From positions 1,860,001-1,924,000 of the forward strand of contig CDLV01000006.1 in NCBI GenBank assembly GCA_001244265.2: a stretch of 64,000 nucleotides of DNA, given 5' to 3'. The notes under the pieces are model-generated. The model searched no databases, was not told the DNA's origin, and worked only from the letters and a program-made list of their open reading frames with translations. The position numbers and the translations under genes are program-made. Below, in pieces: positions 51,421 through 62,517 of this stretch. Source of the stretch: Microbotryum violaceum. Its lineage: Eukaryota. Position 1 is the stretch's first letter, and every line of letters begins with the position of its first letter.

Positions 51421-52473
51421 GCATGAGAATTGCCCCTTGGCAGCCCATCGCGGCACTCAGATCTGATGGCAGCGCGTAGTTTTGAGTGGGCGCGGGGCGA
51501 GCTCGTCTGCCGGATCACGTGACTCTGGCCGTGCATGAGCTTGACGTCAGACGCTGAACCCTCCGCGAACAGTGCAACACTCAGTGCAGTGGTTGGCTAA
51601 CAGCTGAGCGTTGTACGCGGAGGCGATCTACTAAAGAAGTATACAGTACCCATGACCATCGGTAATACTAATCTAGATGCAGTGAGAGCGTGTAAGCAGG
51701 ACGCAGGACCGCAGATGTGACATCGCTTGAGGACATCGCACCGACAAAAGGTACTATATTTGACCGAACCAATTTGTCCCTGCGAAACACTGGGCGATCG
51801 ACCTCAAGACATGGCTACATCGTAAGTGCCTGTTTATCTACATACTGACAATTTTGAGAGGCTGAAGGGAGCTGGTCCACTGGATTGGTCCGAGCTGGCT
51901 ACCGTGAGCTTGGGAGACGAAAGCCTATCGTATGAGTCTTGGACGGATCGTGAGGCCAACTCCAAAATCACCGACCTGCGAGCGTCGCGCGCGAGCGCCG
52001 CAAGCTTGGAGATGAACTGGCGATTGGCGCGATCGCCGGGCGAAGCGAAGAAAAGGGGGTGCGCATCTCCGACCGATCTCGCGGCAAAGTCCGCGCGGGC
52101 CACTGCAGGGCCTCCGCAGCCGGTCGCACGATTTGTCAAGGTACGACCAGGTATTTTCTCAACCGCACATCTCTTCTTCTCACGATCTTGAAGTCGAAAC
52201 CACAACTGAACCACGAGCGCCCGAGGTTAACTACATCTAGTCGGGATAGACTTCAACCAATTTCAGCTGTAGAAACCGAGGGCGCTAAGCGCCGGCGACG
52301 CCCCTTGAGGTGCATGACGCGTTTCGCGGGCCACGAGCTCAGCGGATCATCCACAAACTGACCCACTGTCTCACACCTCGTACCTCTTGTGTTTCCATCC
52401 CTTCCTTCTTGTGGATTAATCCCTCATGTTCGAGTAGCCAACTTCGTCTACTCAACAACATCCTAGTTCGACC

Positions 52474-53808
52474 ATGTATGGCTTGACCCCGCCGGCTTCT
52501 GCGGCCGGAGCGTGGGCCCCGTCAGTGACCGAAACATGGGACACGACCCGCAATGACCAGCATCACGAGCCAGCCCACTACGTGCCTCACCTCGACAGCA
52601 CCATGTATCAATCCGAATGGGAGCCGCACCATGGGCATTATGAAACCTATTCGGCACCCCAACATTCTCACCCTCACCATCAGCACCACCTTTCCGTCGG
52701 CCCTTTCGCCGAAGCTCCGGCCGGACCCCCTGTGACGGCACCAATAGCTCGAGCGTCATCAGCTGGCGTCGATCACCACCGTTCGACCTCTTCGCCGTCG
52801 CACTTTTACGATCGCCATGACGTTAGTCGCATGTCTTCTACCCCGATGATATCTCACCCTTCCGATCCCCCTTGGTCGGACCCTTCGCCATTGCAAGATC
52901 CTCATCTGGCCGCCGCTCGTCATTCTCCCGCTCTCGTTTCGGCCCACCCTTCGGGCGCGCCGTACGCCACTTCGAGCTCGACGAGCTACCGCACCGCGGC
53001 CATGTCGCACCCGCCTCCGCGTCCCACTGCCTCCGCTCTGGCATCAAACCCTCCCAATCACGTGCGCGTCGGTAGCAATGCATCCACGAGTGCGGTGTCC
53101 TATGGCAGTGAACGCCTTTCGTCGATCAGCCCTCCTGTCAGAGGTAGCGACGGCACCCTGAGCCCGCCAACGACGGTCCGATCTGACTCGAGCTCTGACG
53201 AAGCCCTCAAACAAGACAAGACTCCGGCTTCGTCTTTCTTCGACTTAAGTCCGTCGAGTTTGTTGGCGATGGCCAAGAATCCCACGGTGAACGCTACTGC
53301 GCCGGGAAGGGGAAGTTCGACCCTCGTCGCTGCGGAATCCCCTAAGCGCTCTTACCCGGGCGCCAAACGAGGCCGCAAGCCCAAACCTCCGCCTTCGTCC
53401 GAGGAAGCCAAACGAAACCGCGAGATCTGCCTCAAAAAGAATCGGATCGCTGCTCTGCAGTCGCGACGACGGAAGAAGATTAAAAACGGACAACTCGAAA
53501 ACCGTACGTTGCTAGGCCAACGATTCTTCTGCTCGCCCGAGACGTACCTGCTGATCGGTTGATCTGTCCTGATCAACCCATTAGAAGCAAACGAGCTCAT
53601 GTTGCGCAACAAGTCTCTGCAAATCTTTGCGCGGGATCTTCACGTCGAATTGATGCAATTGCGCGCGCTCCTGGCTCGACTGCCCGGCGGCTTTCCCGAC
53701 GTCAACGCCTATCTCGATCGCGAGGCTCAGGGCGGCGGTATTCCCACCATCATGAGGATTGCGGGACCCACGCTGGAGCGTGACTATACACCACCATCAG
53801 ATATCTGA
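52474..53808 (+). CDS. bZIP transcription factor (ATF/CREB-like)
   Basis: Basic region KRNREICLKKNRIAALQSRRRKK; after one intron a leucine zipper QLENQANELMLRNKSLQIFARDLHVELMQLRALL. Confidence 0.88.
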
Positions 53809-54147: not shown

Positions 54148-54180
<33 letters not shown>

Positions 54181-55289
54181 AGCAGTCGCTTGCAAGCTGT
54201 TCAGAGGTTGAGCATAATAGCATGATACCACGACTGGGCGGGCCGTGTAACCCACAGGCGCCGCGATGGCCTCGATAGGACCCCCGAAAGCCCAGCCGGA
54301 GGCGCATTTTTTTTTGTTGACATTTTGAGGACCCAAAATCCTGAAAATCGTCGAGGCGCATTGCATAAAATTGACTTTTTGGGACGAAACACACGTTTCG
54401 CCCCCGAGGCGCATGCCCAGATTTTGACATTTTCCCGTGAGTCGGCCCAATCTTGGCCTACCCTGAGCAGCCTACGGCATGGCTTTGGGCCCGTTTGCCT
54501 TCGCTTCGAAACGCGCTTCGCGATGCTCGCGCTTGAACAAGTCACTAGCCATTTTCGCTAATCACTTTAGTTCAGTGGCTGTTAGAGAATATTAGGGATT
54601 AGGTACCCCTATCAAGTAAAATAAAAATGACGGGGCCCCTGAGGTTCCGTTCCGCTTCACTTCGTTCTGACACTGGAGCATAGCACGACGAAATGATTCC
54701 ATGCTTTGTTTCTCGACGAAGATCAGGACTACTATTTGCACGACGATGACTTTGATCGATTATCGCCGCTCACCAACATGACGGTTGCCGAGCTCCTCGC
54801 CTTCGATGTCGCTCCCGCCGACGCGTCTCTTCACATCGAGTTGTCCAAAAACAAGCCCACCCAGTATTCAAACTTACCCTACCCGACTCTTCAGACCAGA
54901 GACGCGTTTCTTGCTACCGATGCTCTGATCAATGCACGCAAGCCAGGATATCGATCTTTGGCCGTCGGGTCGACGTGTTTGCCGCTCGGCGCCGATCGGC
55001 TATGGTCAGAGTACGAGCGAGCAAAAGACGTTCAAAGCTGGGCGCTGCGAGCTCAACGATGGATGGACAAAATTATCGTTATCAACGAAATTGACCGCAA
55101 CCGTATCGCTGTCGCACGTCGCATACTGAACGGATTGCGATGGCAAGAGCACTAGACGGGCTTCTACCATTGCCTCTTCTTGCAAGTGGAACGAGTTTGG
55201 TTTATCTCCTGAGATTCTTAAGTCAGTACACCAATCCTTCAGCTGGCCACTCGTATTCATCTCGTATCTGAGGCAACTTGCTTATTCGC

Positions 55290-55880
55290 GTCTCTACCCA
55301 GGTCATGATTGGCTCGGTGAAGCCGCGGTGAACTTGTCAATTGAAAGCGTCCTTCGAGCTGGACGAGTGCAGAATCCCGATTTCGAAACATCGTGTGGAC
55401 TTATACCCTCCATCGTCATCTCCTTGGTAATGGCTCGCCCTCCCGACTCGGATCCTCATTCGATCTTCAAAGCCTGTTTTTTCGGCCCGCCAAACCAGTA
55501 TCGGAATCTCATCGAGCTAAGCGATTGCATGCGCAACACGCCGACCTCAAAGTCAATCTGGTTTCTACCCCTCTGCTCCGACAGCCATTGGGTCCTGGCC
55601 CGCATCAACATGCACAAGCGGACGTGGTCTGTGATCAACTCACTCTCCGCCACTCCGATCACCGCGGCTACTCGGACGGCCGTCCTTACGCTGTTCAAAT
55701 TTCTGAAGCTGGACATCAAAAATGAGTTCCCTCATACTCCTAAGGCGGAACAACAGGAAGACAGCTACTCGTGCGGGCCGGCTACGATCAATGCAGTGGA
55801 GACGGAGGTGCTCGGGATTGGGTCATTCAACGCAGCGCGCGCTCACATGTCACGGCTCCGTCAATTCTGTCGTTTATCCT
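55290..55880 (+). CDS. Ulp1/SENP-like (peptidase C48) cysteine protease domain inside the transposon
   Basis: RLYPGHDWLGEAAVN (WLxDxxIN-like), FLPLCSDSHWVLARI (His), VINSL (Asn at the usual Asp position), QQEDSYSCG (oxyanion Gln and catalytic Cys). Confidence 0.8.
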
Positions 55881-56019
55881 CTCTGGTTGGTGCTGTCGAG
55901 GATCCCAAAGAAATCGAATCCATCGTTGCCACGGGCGCAAAATCAAAGGCAAAGTCTGGGAGGGGATCCGCTGCCGGAACACTGAGCAGCAAGAGCACGT
56001 CGGCAGAGTCCGGCATGGC

Positions 56020-59000
56020 AGCGACAATCAAGCCAACAAATCAACGAGTGCATCATCCTCAAAGAACCCGCCAACTTCTCGACTCCAAACGACCTTCACC
56101 AAAGCATCGAAGCCGACGAAAGCTCGAGAGCTCACACCCGAGGAGCATACGACGTGGGCTCGCGACCATCCGCCTCTTTTCAGGAGGCTTGCTGAAAAAG
56201 TCAAAGATCTTTGCCCGGGATCGAATGTCGACGTCAACAATCCAAAATACGTGCGGTGTGGACGATGTTATGTCTTGGTGCCAATGGCGGCCTTGCTGTG
56301 CAAGGCACGATTTGAATTACATCTCGGCAATAAGAAGTGTGTCAACCTCCAACCCATCAGCAATTTCTTCAGACCTATCGCCTCTGGCTCAACTGCTCCC
56401 AGCCCCTCGCTAGGACCGTGCCCCGGCCTTACGTCTGAAACGGCGATACATTATCTTTCATCAACTGCGGCGCAGGGTGGCGGGGCCCCTCCTCGACGGA
56501 CGCTTTGTTTGCGCCTCTATCCCAAAATTGGTAAACGACCAATGACGGAGTTCGAGAGGAAGGAGGTGGACAAATTGGAAGCAAATGAATGGAAGTGGCG
56601 CAACGATCATCGAGCACCGCGCATCATCAGTGTGAATTGTCGCAAGTATAGCGCTCGAGATTCGATCAACAAGGACGGACCAAGCTTACCGTGTGAAGAA
56701 TGCGCGAAGCTTCCTAAGAATTCATCCTGTCGAGCAGCTCTTCGACGTCAATATGCTGCTGGCGCAACTCGCAAATACACCAACAAGAAATATGTCGCGG
56801 GCGATACACTTCTCTCGGCCATCTACCGGCGACATCATGGACTAGAAGAGATCCTGGATGACAACAGTCAAGGGAACGTGTATCTACGATTCGCGCAAGG
56901 TGTGACCTCAGGAGAATTTGACGGAGCGAACATCTTGGAGGGATTGGTGAAAGCGGCTACGGTCAAGCACGATCGGATGGTCAAGGGCAAATCAATGCGA
57001 GGCTTTGTGCGGTCCGAAGCGCTGCGTAACTTCGAGCAAGCCATGGCGCTGGCGTCTCCGATGGCTCTGAGAGTACTGCAGGCTACAATCGGCGCATCCA
57101 CAAGCCGAAAACTGCAGTGAGTACCGTCATTCTTTCGTTCTTCCAATTCAATCTCATACTGAATGATCGAGGTGCTTGCAGAATGGACCGAGCGACATCA
57201 GGCAGGATGCGCCTCGGCCTCGACAAGTCCAACATGGATCGTGTCTGCGCCAAACTCGAAGCAGACGACCTAACGTTCAATTTACACGTAGACGACACGA
57301 AGTGTCGATCCAGGATGCGAACCACTCCATACTACTCAGAAGACCTCAGTTTAGAGCGCGAACTACGTACGAAGGGCATATTCCGCCACGAGCTGATCGG
57401 ATCAATTGGTCCGCCACGCATCTACGAAACTCCGGGTGAACTCCCTGATATGTTCAGCGGACCTGACCCCCCGGTTGCTGGAACCAAAGTGAGTGACAAT
57501 GATTCTTTTAAGTTTGTACTTCATTTCCACGAGGCTTTAACATGTGTCGCCTCTTCATTCAGATCCGAGCTTACATGATAGCACCGAACGATGTTGGCTC
57601 CCCAGCACAGGTGTTTGCCGCTTTTGTGATCGGCGAAACTACGAACGCGGAGGACGCGACCGAGACAGTTACATTCAGTGATACAAGAGTTAATAAAACG
57701 TTGCGTCGCACACCTTCTGGTATCCATCTCCGCAGATGGTGCGGCAAGCGAAGGTGTGCTGCAATGTAATGTTGCCGTCCTTCTGCGCGATCAGGGTGGC
57801 GCTGTTGCTCAAACCGGATCAAGGAACGCGTCATCATACACCCTCCCCTCCCCAGATCTGGACGGAGTGTTTCCTGAGATCATTATATCGACCGTCAACG
57901 TCGCGGGAACGCCGATAGTCTTCTGTCGGGACGAAATACACCTGGCCAAATGTCTGAGGAACGCTATCGACTCTGGAGCAAGATTGCTGTTCGGCGGTCT
58001 CGGATGCATTGCCTACCAGGATATGCTCACCATCCTGGGCGGACTGGAGTCGCGTCGTACTCTGTCTCGTCGTGATGTGGTCGGGCGTGATCGTCAAGAC
58101 GACAATGCAACACATCGGGCATTCTCCAAGGCGACGCTCGAACTCGTAACCGAACTCGCTGAAGACAAAAAACTCGACCCCGATGCGGTCGTATATCTCT
58201 TCCTATGTGGCGAGTTACACGATGCCATCCAGAACCGGTCGCTTCAGCCCCTTGAACGTATCAGGATGTTGCTCGTTGTCAGATATACGTTCGAGGCGTG
58301 GTATGACTTTGTCCGAAGTCGCCCCGGATCTAGCTCTCACTCGTTCCTCGCCAAAGAAACGCTTGATGGGGTCAGGAAGATGGTTGACTCAACGATTGCT
58401 CTCGTCCGCAACTACCGAGATTTTTGGCCAAAGGGATCGTTCATTCCCTGGCGGCATGGCACAGAAATGGTGGAGCACTTCTTCGGGGGTATACGCCAGA
58501 TTGTAAAGGAGTTCGATGCTCTAGAGTTCTTGCAGGTGCGTTCTTCATGAATCAATCTAATCTATACAGTAGTTAACCCGGCTAGAATCCGACAGGCAAC
58601 TGGCAAAGTCACTGCACTCTTGGAGCTCATGAGGAAGTTTAAGACCGAGGCGGCGGGATCACGTCAAGGCTACCATCATACCTACAACGACCTCGACGAT
58701 CTTGACCTTGTTGCGATGCGAACGTACCCCAGTGATGGCGACATCTCTCTCACCAGTTTTGCAGCGGCAAATACTGCGCGTGAACTGCTTTCAGGTTTAC
58801 GCATGTGGGAGCCTGTGCAACGCATCGCGTCCAACAGACGCAACCAAGGTCCGCAACCTGACATATTCGTCGAGGACGTACTCGCCCGTGGCACAACAGT
58901 TCAAGGTATGGAGTTGCGAACGACTTGGTCTATAAGTGATGCGTATCTGACACGGCATACCATGCCCACTTGAAGTAGATCTTGACGACCATCATCCTAC

Positions 59001-60576
59001 CAAGGAAGATCAAGGTCTGCTCCGCACCGAATTGCTGGATTCTGCTCTTGATGGCATGCGGCGTAGCACGTGCCAAGGTGTTGTGAAACCGGACCCAAAC
59101 GAGCGAGAAGCTGTCGACCGTGCAATTCGATCGCTTGCAGCTCTGGACTTTGACGTTGAGGCAGCCTTGTGAGTGGACACTTCTCTGTGCCACGTGCGCT
59201 GAAGCGTTCTTCTACCTTTTAATCCGGACCTCATATTGCTCTCCTTTCTCATTGGCCAGATTCGACGTGCAAATCGCTTACGACGAAGCTGATAGACAAG
59301 CTGAGGAACGCTACGTACTCGAGACCATTGAGAAGGCAAACAGCTCATTACGTCCAATCGTGCGTCTACCAAGCTCAACTAGCGTAATTTCGATCTGAGC
59401 TCATGCATCTTCGGTACTATACAGCCTACACACTTGAGACTTCCGCCTCTTGTTGATGCTCGCGATACCAGTTTCTCGCTGAACTGGGCCAGCTTGATTG
59501 CCCATCGAGCTGCTCATGAGTGTAGCCACCTCAGAGCTGTTCTACTCAAAGGGAGGCCAATGTAATTGAGCGACACAAGTCGCGGAGAGGCAGGCTTAAA
59601 GATTAGCAATACAGAGCAAGGACGCAGTGCAGTACATTCACGCGTCTTGAAAGGGTTGGTGCAGTCCATGGGACCATCTCGCTTCGAAGACATTGCGGGC
59701 ACCGCAAGGAGCTTTCGCTGGACTGGAGGTGGCCAGGTGGCCCGAGCGCTCACAACAAACGAGATTCAGAAGAACGCCTATATTGAGGATGGCCGCATTA
59801 AGTGAGTTGTTGCTGAATTTAGGAACGAAGGCAACTGGATCTAATGTTTTGCCGGTCCTATACTTTTAGGAAAAGCTCCCGGAGAGAGACAAGCAGTATG
59901 GAGCGCTAGCACAACGCTGTCCTCATTTTGGATCGCTTGACGGAGCTGTAACCGCTGCCACACCATTGGAGATTAGATCCCTGATCTGCTTTGGCCTCAA
60001 GTGTGGCATGCATTCACTCAGCGGCGATCAAACTGTTTATGGAGAAGAAGCGCTGTCTATCGGAATTGGTACGTTGTTTTGAGTGGCAGTTGAGGAAGTT
60101 CTCGTTTGACACAAGTCTTGTGTCCTACAGTGCGACACATCTACAGCAAAGTGTCAATAAACCACTGCAACCAAGACACGCTTGCCTTGTTGGTTCTACT
60201 CTCAAATGTCGTCGTACAGGAGCTTCGCCTCATCAAGAAAACATGCTATTCCACACACCTCATTGATGGCACTATGCCGTTCCGCATGATTGATGGTCGA
60301 CAGGTCATCGAGTCATTAGGCCCGTCAACGACTACATATCGTTCAACCACGGACCTTACCTCATGTTACCCGGACGAGCGCCTAATCAGCACGAGCGCAC
60401 ATGCCGAGCAAAGGTTTGCCGCCCTTCGGAGCGTGCCCGGCCTGCGAGACGCCGCCGGCAGAACCTCTACAAGCCGCACAAATGCCACCGCGGAAACAAG
60501 GAGCTCAACTTCAGCAAAAAGGAAGTCTGACAACGAAGCAGCGAGCCAGCCAGCAAAGCAAGGAAGGCTTGTTTGA
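56020..60576 (+). pseudogene. P-element/THAP9-like DDE transposase, multi-exon, apparently frameshifted
   Basis: LHVDDTK (57291), ISADGA (57735), RDEIHLAKCLRN (DxxH, 57930), DRQD, TEMVEHFFGGIRQ (E at 58473). Introns include 57116-57181, 57489-57562 and 58536-58594. Frame discontinuity near 57665; basic NLS-like C-terminus KRKSD...KQGRLV. Confidence 0.8.
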
Positions 60577-60982
60577 AGCGTGGAGCCACGCGCAACACCA
60601 GCCGAAGCGACGCGCGCCACAAGCCACTTTCGATAGGCCGCCGCGCGTCCGCAAACGCTCGGAACGCGTTTTCGAGGACTTTTGAGCGATTTTTGGAGCA
60701 TGTAGAACAAATTTTGATAATATTTCCGAGGCGCATGCGAAATTTTGACATTTCGGGGCCAAAATAGGGTAAAAAAACTTTGACAAAAAGGCAAAAAAAG
60801 TGCGTTTTTCCGCATGCACCTCTGGCTGGGCTTTCGGGGGTCCTGCCTCGATCCTGGTGACGTCAGGCCGGAACCAAGCTCCACCTCGTCACTCGCCTTG
60901 ATCTTCCTCCCTCCCCTACCCTCCTGCTCTCCCCACCCGCTTCCTTCAGCTATCCACCACCGACTAGCTTAAACTTTCCAAC

Positions 60983-62517
60983 ATGCAATCCCCCATTCTC
61001 AGAACCCGCCTCACAGCTGCTCAGGTCAGTGCACACCTCGACCATCCTCGTGTCATTTCAGAGCTCAGCTGACGCTGTCGAAACAGAACGTCTCGCGTCG
61101 TACGCTCTCTACCCAGAGGGCGACACAAGTCCCTCCTGTGGCCGGCCAACGGCCCATCATCGTCAACACCGGCCGCCCGGTTGTCGGTGCTCCGCAACCC
61201 CACCCGGTGCCCAACCCTCCGAGGGCGGCGCCCGGTGGAAGCGGACCTAACGTCCCGTGAGCCAACTTGTCGTCGGCGCAAGCCCTCGTTCAGATCCTGC
61301 CATTTAGCATTTTGAATCCCGCCTCTGTCCTCCATAGCGTGATCATCGGCATCGTTGCGGTCGGCGGCGGCCTAATTTGGTATTTCAACAAACCCGCTGA
61401 GGCGAAGCGCGAGATCCGCCAGCTGGAGAACAAGGCCGAAACTGCTTTCGACGCTACGAAGGACAAGACCGAAGCTGCTTTGGAGAAGACGAAGTACAAG
61501 GTCGAGTCCGTTCTCGACTCGGCAAAGGACAAGCTCCCGGCGGATCGCTCGACCCAGAGCCAAGCCAAGGCCGATGAGGTCAAGAGCAAGGCTTCGGGTT
61601 GGTTCAGCAGCGCCGAGTCGGACGCCGAGAAGGCAAAGCGAGAAGCGACGGCGGCCTACCAGGACACCAAGAGCGTCGTCGGGAAAAAAGTTGAGGAGGT
61701 CAAGCAAGAGGGACAATCGTGGCTCTCGTGGGGAGGTGACAAGGCCGCCGAAGCCAAGTCCACAGCCAAAGAACAAGTCAGTCGCTGGTATCGATGTCCA
61801 GCCGTCCGTCACTTTTCGGCGACTGAGCCCTGTTGACCTGGCCTCTTGTAGGTCGCCGATGCCAAGTACTCTGCGAAGCAAAACGGCGAAGGTATCAAAG
61901 CTGAGGTGAATATCTCGCAACGCAGCTTCCGAAGCCCAACTTTGTTGCAGTGTTCTGATCCATTCTCTCCGCTTTGTTCTGTACAACAGAGCAAGTCGTG
62001 GTTCAGCTGGGGATCCGCCAAGGCCGATGATGCCGAGAAAGCGACCAAGTCGGCCGCTCGTGATGCCGAGTACAAGATCCAGTCCGCCGCCGATTCCGCG
62101 AACCGAACTGCACAGGAAGCGGCCAATGCTACCAAACGCGGCTACTACGAAGCCAAAGACTCGGCGGAGCGTGAGCTCGATGCGACGCGCAGGTCTGCTC
62201 GCGACGTTGCACAGTATGCCGAGGATGGCGCGAGGGACACGGCGAACGCCGTGAAGCGAGGTGCCGAGGATGCGGGCCGTGTCGCACAGGAGAAGGCCGA
62301 GGAGGCCAAGCAAGCGGCTTCGTCGTGGTTCTCGTGGGGGTCAAAGAAGGCCGACGAGGCCGCTGATGTCGCTGCCACCAAGGCCAACGAGACTAAGGAC
62401 GCCGCCGTCGGTGCCGGGCAGGGCGTCAAGGACAACGTCAAGGATGGACTCCTGTGGGCCGAGAACAAGGTCGAGTCCGGAGCCCAATGGGCACAGCACG
62501 AGACGAAGAAGCTTTAA
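60983..62517 (+). CDS. LEA-like (hydrophilin) protein with putative mitochondrial presequence and one TM segment
   Basis: Arg/Ser/Thr-rich N-terminus, TM VIIGIVAVGGGLIWYF, Ala/Lys/Glu-rich amphipathic repeats with recurring SWFSWG motifs. Confidence 0.8.

Follow-up and report, generated by a model that had tools for sequence, protein, structure and literature searches.

The stretch of Microbotryum violaceum DNA analysed here, a window of 64,000 nucleotides, carries motifs of an Ulp1/SENP-like protease just upstream of a transposase, and the question it raises is whether the two belong to one gene and, if so, what such a protease would do for the element that encodes it. An earlier note on this DNA had placed the motifs inside terminal inverted repeats, on the transposase strand and in a frame overlapping the one that leads into the transposase. 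This description was borne out. The motifs lie on the + strand in a single open reading frame (55130-56413; WLGEAAVN at 55310, HWVL at 55586, INSL at 55634 and QQEDSYSCG at 55751), which overlaps the frame 55744-57120 leading into the transposase, and the whole is bounded by 31-nt inverted repeats (54277-54307 and 60814-60844) that are 94% complementary. The element, a P-superfamily cut-and-paste transposon of a basidiomycete type, spans 54277-60844 (6,568 bp) and has at least 14 near-full copies in the genome.

P-superfamily termini read 5'-CA...TG-3', and the ends of the P element start with CA. Unlike these, the copies of the present element start with AGG and finish with CCT, and we took AGG...CCT as the true ends because the 8-bp target-site duplication fits no other ends. 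The duplication around the window copy is perfect. Among ten copies with both ends, five have a perfect duplication, two match at 7/8 positions, one has no match and the remaining two carry each other's 8-mer; perfect 8-bp duplications likewise flank the sister-family copies L075, L087, L088 and L118. The flanks of copy L008 gave only partial matches to those of L009 and L011, in repeat-rich DNA. A fourth exact copy of the GAGGCGCAT repeat stands at 60728, near the right end, and the subterminal repeats (three left, one right) are candidate transposase-binding sites.

The single gene of the element is predicted to comprise ten exons encoding 1,747 amino acids. The protein runs from an N-terminal extension through the C48 protease, a linker and a Cys-rich putative DNA-binding region to a P-type RNase H core and a C-terminal region (Table 1). 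The N-terminal extension, which found no match in a Pfam search, also stands ahead of the protease in relatives. The earlier note had assigned 54706-56040 to the protease; this span contains the domain but also takes in the N-terminal extension of exon 1, the predicted intron at 55222-55301 and the linker. The intron 1 region is spliced variously in the annotated relatives P0004-P0007, and the stretch matching intron 2 is in frame and stop-free in copies L075 and L077 of the sister family, family B. Contigs from run X3, run X7 or both contained joints that match introns 4-9, while introns 1-3 had no match among the 15 joints listed from contigs; the alignment of one run-X3 contig ends at 57116.

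Table 1. Coordinates of the element and its predicted gene in the window
Feature	Position	Strand	Basis
Left target-site duplication copy, 8 bp	54269..54276	+	same letters as 60845-60852
Left terminal inverted repeat, 31 bp, starts AGG	54277..54307	+	inverted-repeat search; genomic copies start at same base
Three subterminal GAGGCGCAT repeats (54299, 54353, 54406)	54299..54434	+	repeat search
Predicted exon 1, N-terminal extension (~170 aa)	54693..55221	+	gene model; matches annotated Microbotryum proteins
Predicted intron 1, GT..AG, 80 nt	55222..55301	+	boundaries picked by homology
C48 / CE-clan protease domain	~55302..55890	+	Pfam PF02902, motifs, Ulp1/SENP fold
Key protease residues	Trp 55310, His 55586, Trp 55589, Asn 55637, Gln 55754, Cys 55772	+	
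Low-complexity linker	55891..56120	+	pLDDT <50; dN/dS 0.66
Transposase N-terminal region	56121..57116	+	Cys/His motifs, structure prediction
Predicted intron 2, 65 nt, between protease-bearing exon and catalytic exons	57117..57181	+	gene model
P-type DDE catalytic core, two exons	57182..58535	+	fold match to 6P5A; gene model
Core motifs	VDDTK 57288, DGAASE 57735, HLAK 57939, RQDD 58092, EHFF 58473	+	
Predicted intron 3	57489-57562	+	gene model
C-terminal exons 5-10	58596..60576	+	gene model
Right terminal inverted repeat	60814..60844	-	inverted-repeat search
Right target-site duplication copy, 8 bp	60845..60852	+	matches 54269-54276

The window copy is dead. It carries six lesions and is unable to make the protein: insertions at 54705 and 55152-55153 in exon 1, a one-base deletion near 56049 in the linker, a one-base insertion at 57664 in the catalytic core, and a stop at 59563 and a one-base deletion at 59799 in the C-terminal exons. 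None of the 14 copies with the full coding span is intact; one-base deletions within homopolymers recur among the copies.

The assignment of the upstream domain to C48 was upheld. Pfam Peptidase_C48 (PF02902) matched with 26.1 bits (E 9e-6; gathering cut-off 20.7 bits), and a search of solved structures with the family profile was headed by Ulp1 (5.5e-18) and SENP1 (1e-16), while a single-sequence search matched two Ulp1 proteins only. The predicted fold aligned with Ulp1/SENP structures at Z 14-17, best with SENP3 (Z 16.7, rmsd 2.9, 181 aligned), and Ulp1 entries headed the Foldseek list. The catalytic His and Cys, the oxyanion Gln and the two Trp residues of C48 are all present, and among the copies spanning each site WLGEAAVN is retained in 18/20, HWVL in 20/21, INSL in 22/22 and QQEDSYSCG in 20/22.

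The Asp expected in a C48 triad is absent from the window family. INSL aligns with VDSL, so that Asn occupies the Asp position of yeast Ulp1. A mutation private to the window copy was ruled out as the source, since all 22 family copies share the Asn. The His-Asn-Cys triad suggested in the earlier note stands for the Microbotryomycetes lineage but is not family-wide: 87 of the 101 protease-bearing relatives, drawn from the best 120 of 266 proteins selected on the transposase core, have Asp. His-Asn-Cys is the mark of a Microbotryomycetes clade, the mushroom relatives being mostly His-Asp-Cys. A long branch (1.1 changes per column) leads to the Asn clade, and an Asp pair is nested within this clade in the tree; of four rows added to the tree, three carry Asn and one, P0168, carries Asp.

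We classed the transposase core by fold alone, because sequence searches left it unclassified. The core had no Pfam match, phmmer found no solved structure, and the P transposase, with which it shares 12-13% identity (under Pfam and phmmer detection), was absent from 39 profile matches (E up to 1) to solved structures. The core model nevertheless matched Drosophila P transposase 6P5A (Foldseek 6.1e-11; Z 25.7, rmsd 4.4, 355 aligned), its insertion domain included in the overall alignment, whereas RAG, the next structure, reached Z 9.4, Hermes 8.7, integrases at most 8.4 and ISCth4 7.6. No match to the Mutator, hAT, Transib/RAG or Ginger transposase families of Pfam occurred in the proteins scanned. 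The three core acidic residues are kept in 42, 42 and 33 of 43 rows, the third being mostly gapped in the remaining rows. The P-type HTH family PF12017 exceeded its cut-off in two relatives, and TNP-like families were seen in ESM Atlas neighbours scoring 0.90-0.92. The predicted structure hence identifies the core as a P-type DDE transposase. Upstream of it, the N-terminal region consists of a C-x2-C...H-x3-C finger, a four-Cys domain containing a conserved GGG motif (56476-56484) and a helical region, and matched no Pfam family; an ESM Atlas search of named clusters with the Cys-rich region (P0001 residues 345-600) gave no usable match, from which neither novelty nor absence follows. Pfam scans of 16 and of 13 proteins gave no THAP match, and a THAP-like pattern was found in 0/124; fungi are said to be without THAP (PMC7776569).

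Could the protease derive from a captured piece of host sequence or from a nested insertion, or be an independent gene within the element, in each case unlinked to the transposase? In the window copy the two frames overlap without joining, no spliced contig crosses introns 1-3 among the 15 joints listed, and the genome holds stand-alone relatives of the protease; related protease genes were found inside other repeats, where the surrounding 9.5 kb contain no P transposase. However, the frame overlap results from the one-base deletion near 56049, which is private to this copy (1/22). In copies L006 and L013 a single frame of 674 codons covers both the protease and the transposase N-terminal region, and in the family-B copies L075 and L077 stop-free frames of 752 and 758 codons run from the protease to VDDTK, the first catalytic Asp. 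The host has an Ulp1-like gene of its own, L089, which differs from the element protease and encodes a His-Asp-Cys triad. Of the 266 core-selected matches (967-3,079 aa), the best 120 are all Agaricomycetes. The choice rested solely on the core, and 101 of the 120 have the protease, always upstream, with Cys and Gln in 100/101 and His in 98/101. The 19 without it have cores starting by residue 579 (against a median of 855), which fits truncated gene models without proving them. Protease distances track those of the core (rho 0.86, 0/999 permutations as high), and of 14 supported protease splits 11 are shared with the core tree and two conflict with it, indicating that the two halves were inherited together. 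An unlinked protease is therefore extremely improbable. The protease-transposase fusion proposed in the earlier note was upheld, with a C48 match in hand and the domain present in other family members, and it is a genuine gene design.

Between subfamilies, two comparisons gave protease dN/dS values of 0.26 (0.14-0.47) and 0.23 (0.13-0.41), computed without transition correction and with one of the comparisons resting on a single copy. Transposase regions gave 0.14-0.43 and the linker 0.66 (0.30-1.54), an interval that overlaps that of the protease. These estimates, about 0.25, point to purifying selection on the protease, with the caveat that private variants in this domain already reach 0.51. 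Shared versus private variants inside family A were discarded as a selection test owing to small, inconsistent counts, and dN/dS across families A, B and C was dropped, synonymous sites being mostly saturated.

Given a fused protease, its activity and substrate have to be considered. The domain might be a non-enzymatic SUMO/ubiquitin-binding module that the Asn clade retained for targeting, as the exchange of the triad Asp and the long branch would allow. Papain-type proteases, however, normally use Asn as their third catalytic residue, an Asp pair is nested in the Asn clade, and four Microbotryum families, which share 40-46% identity in the comparisons made, all retain Cys, His, the oxyanion Gln and the two Trp residues; together this makes a mere binding module very improbable. 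The earlier note had also suggested self-processing. On this reading the protease would cut the precursor of about 1,750 amino acids at Gly-Gly and free the transposase. Viral CE-clan proteases process polyproteins, the protease here is N-terminal to a long flexible linker, and the downstream GGG is present in 79/100 aligned rows, its third Gly in 95/95 rows with a residue. This idea was weakened by the position of the motif, the sole conserved Gly-Gly: it lies between Cys442 and Cys515/533/536 of P0001 (kept in 91-95 rows), within a block that is predicted at pLDDT 96 and contains beta-bridges, so that cleavage would split a folded domain. We rejected the GGG as a cleavage site; it is likely structural. 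Moreover, the linker has no Gly-Gly in either family consensus, the related protease genes of other repeats have no P transposase within 9.5 kb, and viral proteases fit worse (I7L Z 10.5, pS273R 9.7, adenain 8.6). Self-processing is thus quite improbable.

It is less easy to say which tag would be cut. Fold does not tell SUMO from NEDD8 proteases, because SENP3 (Z 16.7), SENP5 (16.6) and the NEDD8 protease (15.9; 191 aligned, 20% identity) are nearly equal; de-sumoylating 5LNB lies within the same Z unit, with SENP1 and Ulp1 just behind. XopD, NopD, OtDUB and ChlaDUB match too, and members of clan CE can accept more than one tag, NopD acting on SUMO, ubiquitin and NEDD8 (PMC11130253). The fusion would be unchanged if the enzyme were a deubiquitinase, a deNEDDylase or of broad spectrum, for example shielding the transposase from degradation or acting on cullin ligases. 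Against this, profile scores favour Ulp1 (67 bits) and SENP1 (63) over bacterial deubiquitinases (at most 41), the NEDD8 protease is missing from the 39 profile matches at E up to 1, and the single-sequence search returned Ulp1 proteins alone; we regard it as unlikely. SUMO is the likeliest tag, with a slightly better than even chance, ubiquitin or NEDD8 being the alternatives.

Taken as a whole, the locus is probably best explained by an element-encoded fusion in which an active tag-removing protease is tethered to the transposase. We infer that in intact elements the protease would be an active enzyme, Asn replacing Asp in the Microbotryomycetes clade. It would cleave behind the Gly-Gly motif of ubiquitin-like tags, and tethering by the transposase at the element ends would make tag stripping local to the element. 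Either the transposase or the chromatin and repair proteins present where the element is excised or inserted would lose their tags, to the benefit of transposition. A more far-reaching version seems to us possible but doubtful: an obligate, active deSUMOylase, delivered by the transposase to its own chromatin, would lift SUMO-dependent silencing or reset the transpososome, within a large, unnamed, THAP-less basidiomycete P branch with an undescribed Cys-rich DNA-binding region, with natural His-Asn-Cys Ulp1-family enzymes in Microbotryomycetes and with the module having also given rise to stand-alone genes of other repeats. If true, the element would possess an enzymatic counter-defence acting in cis.

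Among known systems, Drosophila P transposase and THAP9 (6P5A, 6PE2; PF12017, PF21787-PF21789) share the split RNase H core with helical insertion, and the P element shares the 8-bp target duplication, 31-bp inverted ends and subterminal repeats (PMC7776569). In contrast to P/THAP9, we found no THAP here, its place being taken by the protease and by Cys-rich domains that fall into none of the known families, and the protein (about 1,750 aa) and element (6.6 kb) differ from those of P. Ulp1-bearing Mutator and Ginger1 elements also encode a PF02902 domain in a cut-and-paste transposon, and Ginger1 fuses it to the transposase (PMC2836005), but their transposase superfamilies are unrelated and the protease is C-terminal in Ginger1 (PMC2836005) and N-terminal here. 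Yeast Ulp1, human SENP1/3/5 and NEDP1 (C48, clan CE) resemble the element protease in fold, in how His, Asp/Asn, Gln and Cys follow one another, and in the two Trp positions; the element protease differs in its 13-20% identity to them, the Asn of the Microbotryomycetes clade and the fusion to a transposase. Fungal Repbase P elements (Pucciniales, Allomyces) belong to the same superfamily and kingdom (PMC5751038).

Both parts being of known kinds, what is new is confined to the pairing, its range and the Asn variant. The literature searched, which did not cover Repbase, yielded no paper on a C48 domain paired with a P-type transposase and none on an active CE-clan enzyme with Asn. P-superfamily elements have been counted rare in fungi, with 11 transposase-bearing elements as single occurrences in one survey (PMC5751038), whereas the present lineage has 266 matches. 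These elements are common in basidiomycetes; they escape Pfam and are annotated as hypothetical or ubiquitin-like protease. Ulp1-type domains recur across unrelated transposon groups with a job that is still only suggested, a role in transposition or DNA repair being the suggestion for Ginger1 (PMC2836005). Here the protease is fused in at least 101 relatives, appears to be selected as strongly as the transposase and is joined to an enzyme whose structural relative has been solved, which makes a catalytic-Cys test of its role feasible. The conserved pairing thereby offers a route to testing why transposons carry SUMO-protease-like domains.

In an earlier note on this DNA, a Ulp1/SENP-like protease domain was proposed upstream of the transposase. 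The four motifs on which this proposal rested (WLGEAAVN, HWVL, INSL and QQEDSYSCG) all lie in one forward-strand frame that overlaps the frame leading toward the transposase, as the note had stated, and a Pfam search of the former with Peptidase_C48 returned 26.1 bits (E 9e-6) over a cut-off of 20.7, so that the C48 assignment stands. A Pfam scan of nine other frames found no family above cut-off. When solved sequences were searched with the protease domain as a single sequence, two Ulp1 proteins were the sole matches. The domain model (pLDDT about 90) adopts a CE-clan fold and matched SENP3 (Z 16.7), SENP5 (16.6), a NEDD8 protease (15.9), the de-sumoylating protease 5LNB (15.9), SENP1 (15.3) and Ulp1 (14.7). 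Since a family profile search favoured Ulp1 and SENP1 and did not return the NEDD8 protease among its matches, SUMO is the best guess for the substrate, though only slightly preferred. The CE enzyme NopD accepts three tags (PMC11130253).

Features of the window in and around the element
Feature	Position	Remarks
Gene with bZIP-like basic region	52438-53808	weak Pfam matches, E 0.1; ends about 470 bp left of element
Run of 30 C	54150-54179	90 bp left of element
Element (family A copy)	54277-60844	6,568 bp; 31-nt inverted repeats at both ends; perfect 8-bp duplication on flanks
ORF with the four protease motifs	55130-56413	+ strand
Protease domain	about 55302-55890	
ORF toward transposase	55744-57120	
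Gene with Lys/Ala/Glu-rich repeats (33-nt and longer)	61000-62517	recurring SWFSWG motifs; directly right of element; presumably LEA-like

The Cys and Gln are retained in 100 of 101 protease-bearing relatives and the His in 98, which argues for catalysis, and the protease of intact elements is quite probably active. INSL pairs in alignment with VDSL of yeast Ulp1, the Asp of which we take to be catalytic. The His-Asn-Cys triad read from the window is not peculiar to this copy: Asn occupies the third position in all 22 family-A copies, in 11 of 12 copies of the sister family B and also in families C and D. A host Ulp1-like gene (L089) carries Asp, as do 87 of the 101 protease-bearing mushroom relatives; three of the 101 have Asn. 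A tree built from 66 protease domains grouped the Microbotryum and Phenoliferia rows into one clade of 10 (support 99/96), made up of eight Asn rows and one nested Asp pair; two mushroom rows with Asn were placed outside this clade and separately. The third position appears to toggle between Asp and Asn, as would be expected if both function.

The transposase was left unplaced by sequence-based tools. A model of a natural catalytic-region frame (P0003, pLDDT 83.8) matched Drosophila P transposase with a Foldseek E of 6.1e-11, 6P5A and 6PE2 being the sole entries below 0.001, and aligned with it over 355 residues (Z 25.7, rmsd 4.4), the next family reaching Z 9.4. Its ESM Atlas neighbours with an assigned family were P/TNP-like, and the P-type HTH family PF12017 exceeded its cut-off in two relatives. 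We assign the element to the P superfamily; 31-bp ends and an 8-bp duplication are features it shares with the P element as described in the consulted part of PMC7776569. In contrast to animal P-superfamily members, relatives scanned by Pfam and by pattern yielded no THAP domain. The stretch that separates the protease from the catalytic core holds a C-x2-C...H-x3-C finger together with a four-Cys domain, both without a Pfam family.

At least 14 near-full copies, the window included, share 96-98% identity in the genome, a lower bound with 25 of 227 candidates scored, and additional partial copies occur. Named relatives, at 83-94% identity, are from Microbotryum, which suggests an anther smut as host. 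Sister families B (12 copies sampled), C (L087, L090) and D (L118-L120) have ends and protease in common with family A, and one copy of each (L075, L087, L118) is flanked by perfect 8-bp duplications. Among ten copies with both ends, the duplications were perfect in five, matched at 7/8 in two and unmatched in one; the remaining two carry each other's 8-mer. These two, L009 (G000:C2:2087866-2094422) and L011 (G000:C2:2141354-2147897), are inverted and 47 kb apart, as inversion by recombination between both copies would leave them, and in an oppositely oriented copy on contig C1 (L008) one of the two 8-mers recurs as its reverse complement. Most copies sit on contigs C1 and C2, alongside matching ubiquitin-like hits; these may be the two mating-type chromosomes. 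Terminal repeats of families B (L075-L086), C and D are nearly identical to that of family A (for B, 96% over 29 bp versus about 67% DNA identity internally), so cross-mobilisation between the P-like families A-D is possible. Internally deleted derivatives with both ends, in which window 54876 is joined to about 59316 (runs X1 and X7) or which are represented by L091, L088 and L087, are likely non-autonomous. C-to-T changes among family-A copies peak at TCG (65 of 321 sites, 0.20; other contexts 0.05-0.15), a context reported for hypermutation in Pucciniomycotina in the part of PMC12730594 consulted.

The window copy has six lesions in its coding span, and of the 14 copies whose coding span is complete none is intact. 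At positions equivalent to window 56135, 57467 (12 of 23) and 58489, many copies have lost a single base in a homopolymer; either defective copies have spread or the long-read assembly is in error there, and some of these losses may be of the latter kind. In an alignment of 23 copies the window misses one base near 56049 that is present in 21 of 22 copies, and in two of these (L006, L013) a single frame of 674 codons spans the protease and the N-region of the transposase. The strongest evidence for fusion, splicing not being needed, comes from family B, where in two of 12 copies (L075, L077) the reading frame stays free of stops for 752 and 758 codons, starting with the protease, its His, Asn and Cys included, and reaching VDDTK, the first catalytic motif. 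The gene model has ten exons, nine GT..AG introns and 1,747 codons without internal stops. Contigs from relatives, presumed to be RNA and taken from two studies, join across introns 4, 6, 7 and 9 in runs X3 and X7 and across introns 5 and 8 in X3 only; introns 1-3 had no joint among the matches listed (15 of 25), and the alignment of one X3 contig ends at 57116, the final base ahead of intron 2. The suspected fusion is thus almost certainly real and conserved, and the window copy is dead.

A search with nothing but the transposase core returned 266 proteins, the best 120 of which are all from Agaricomycetes. The protease was present in 101 of these 120, always upstream of the core. In the other 19 the core begins at or before residue 579, against a median of 855 in the protease-bearing proteins; such late starts are what truncated gene models would give. 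Both parts were found in 58 of 63 proteins of at least 1,100 aa in a second set, which includes profile seeds and was partly retrieved with a protease-bearing query. Among 43 proteins (46 minus three near-duplicates), protease and core distances correlated with rho 0.86, a value reached in none of 999 permutations; the protease tree has 14 supported splits, of which 11 are also found in the core tree and two contradict it, and 24 of the 43 have the same nearest neighbour in both. The two halves have therefore mostly been inherited together.

Between subfamilies about 90% alike, protease dN/dS was 0.26 (bootstrap 0.14-0.47) when family A was compared with L088, a single copy, and 0.23 (0.13-0.41) for B1 against B2. 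In these two comparisons the transposase regions ranged over 0.21-0.43 and 0.14-0.25; the value for the linker was 0.66 (0.30-1.54). As private variants yield 0.45-1.53 by region (protease 0.51) and transitions are uncorrected, the neutral baseline lies below 1, and the direction of the protease contrast suggests purifying selection.

Ulp1 domains are known in Mutator and Ginger1 elements, their role merely suggested; in Ginger1 the protease is C-terminal, as against upstream of the core here (PMC2836005, in part). The consulted part of a fungal survey counts 11 P elements, all single occurrences, and has C48 solely as a filter term (PMC5751038), that of a Microbotryum transposon study mentions neither P element nor protease (PMC10502011), and term searches of PMC12730594, PMC5718144 and PMC6416283, again in part, gave nothing relevant. 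No paper on the pairing was found in a search of openly accessible literature; Repbase, outside that search, contains fungal P families.

The protease might alternatively process its own precursor, as the earlier note had also suggested. A search for a conserved Gly-Gly speaks against this: the sole candidate, a GGG in 79 of 100 rows, has conserved Cys residues on either side and falls within a block of pLDDT 96, and so appears structural. Moreover, 9 of 12 loci chosen for matches to related protease genes in other repeats have no P transposase within 9.5 kb, the remaining three being family D, and such stand-alone proteases fit a role other than precursor cutting. They share with the fused proteins the N-terminal extension and the protease, and AGG-type ends are likewise absent within 9.5 kb. 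Three protein types occur, P0167 (L111, L113-L115, L121) and P0093 (L116, L117, L122) in multi-copy repeats of 3-5 kb and P0168 (L112) singly; P0167 and P0168 nest within the Microbotryum clade of fused proteases.

We conclude that intact elements probably encode one protein, the protease of which strips ubiquitin-like tags near the transposon ends, and removal of these tags might counter silencing, free the transposase or steer repair.
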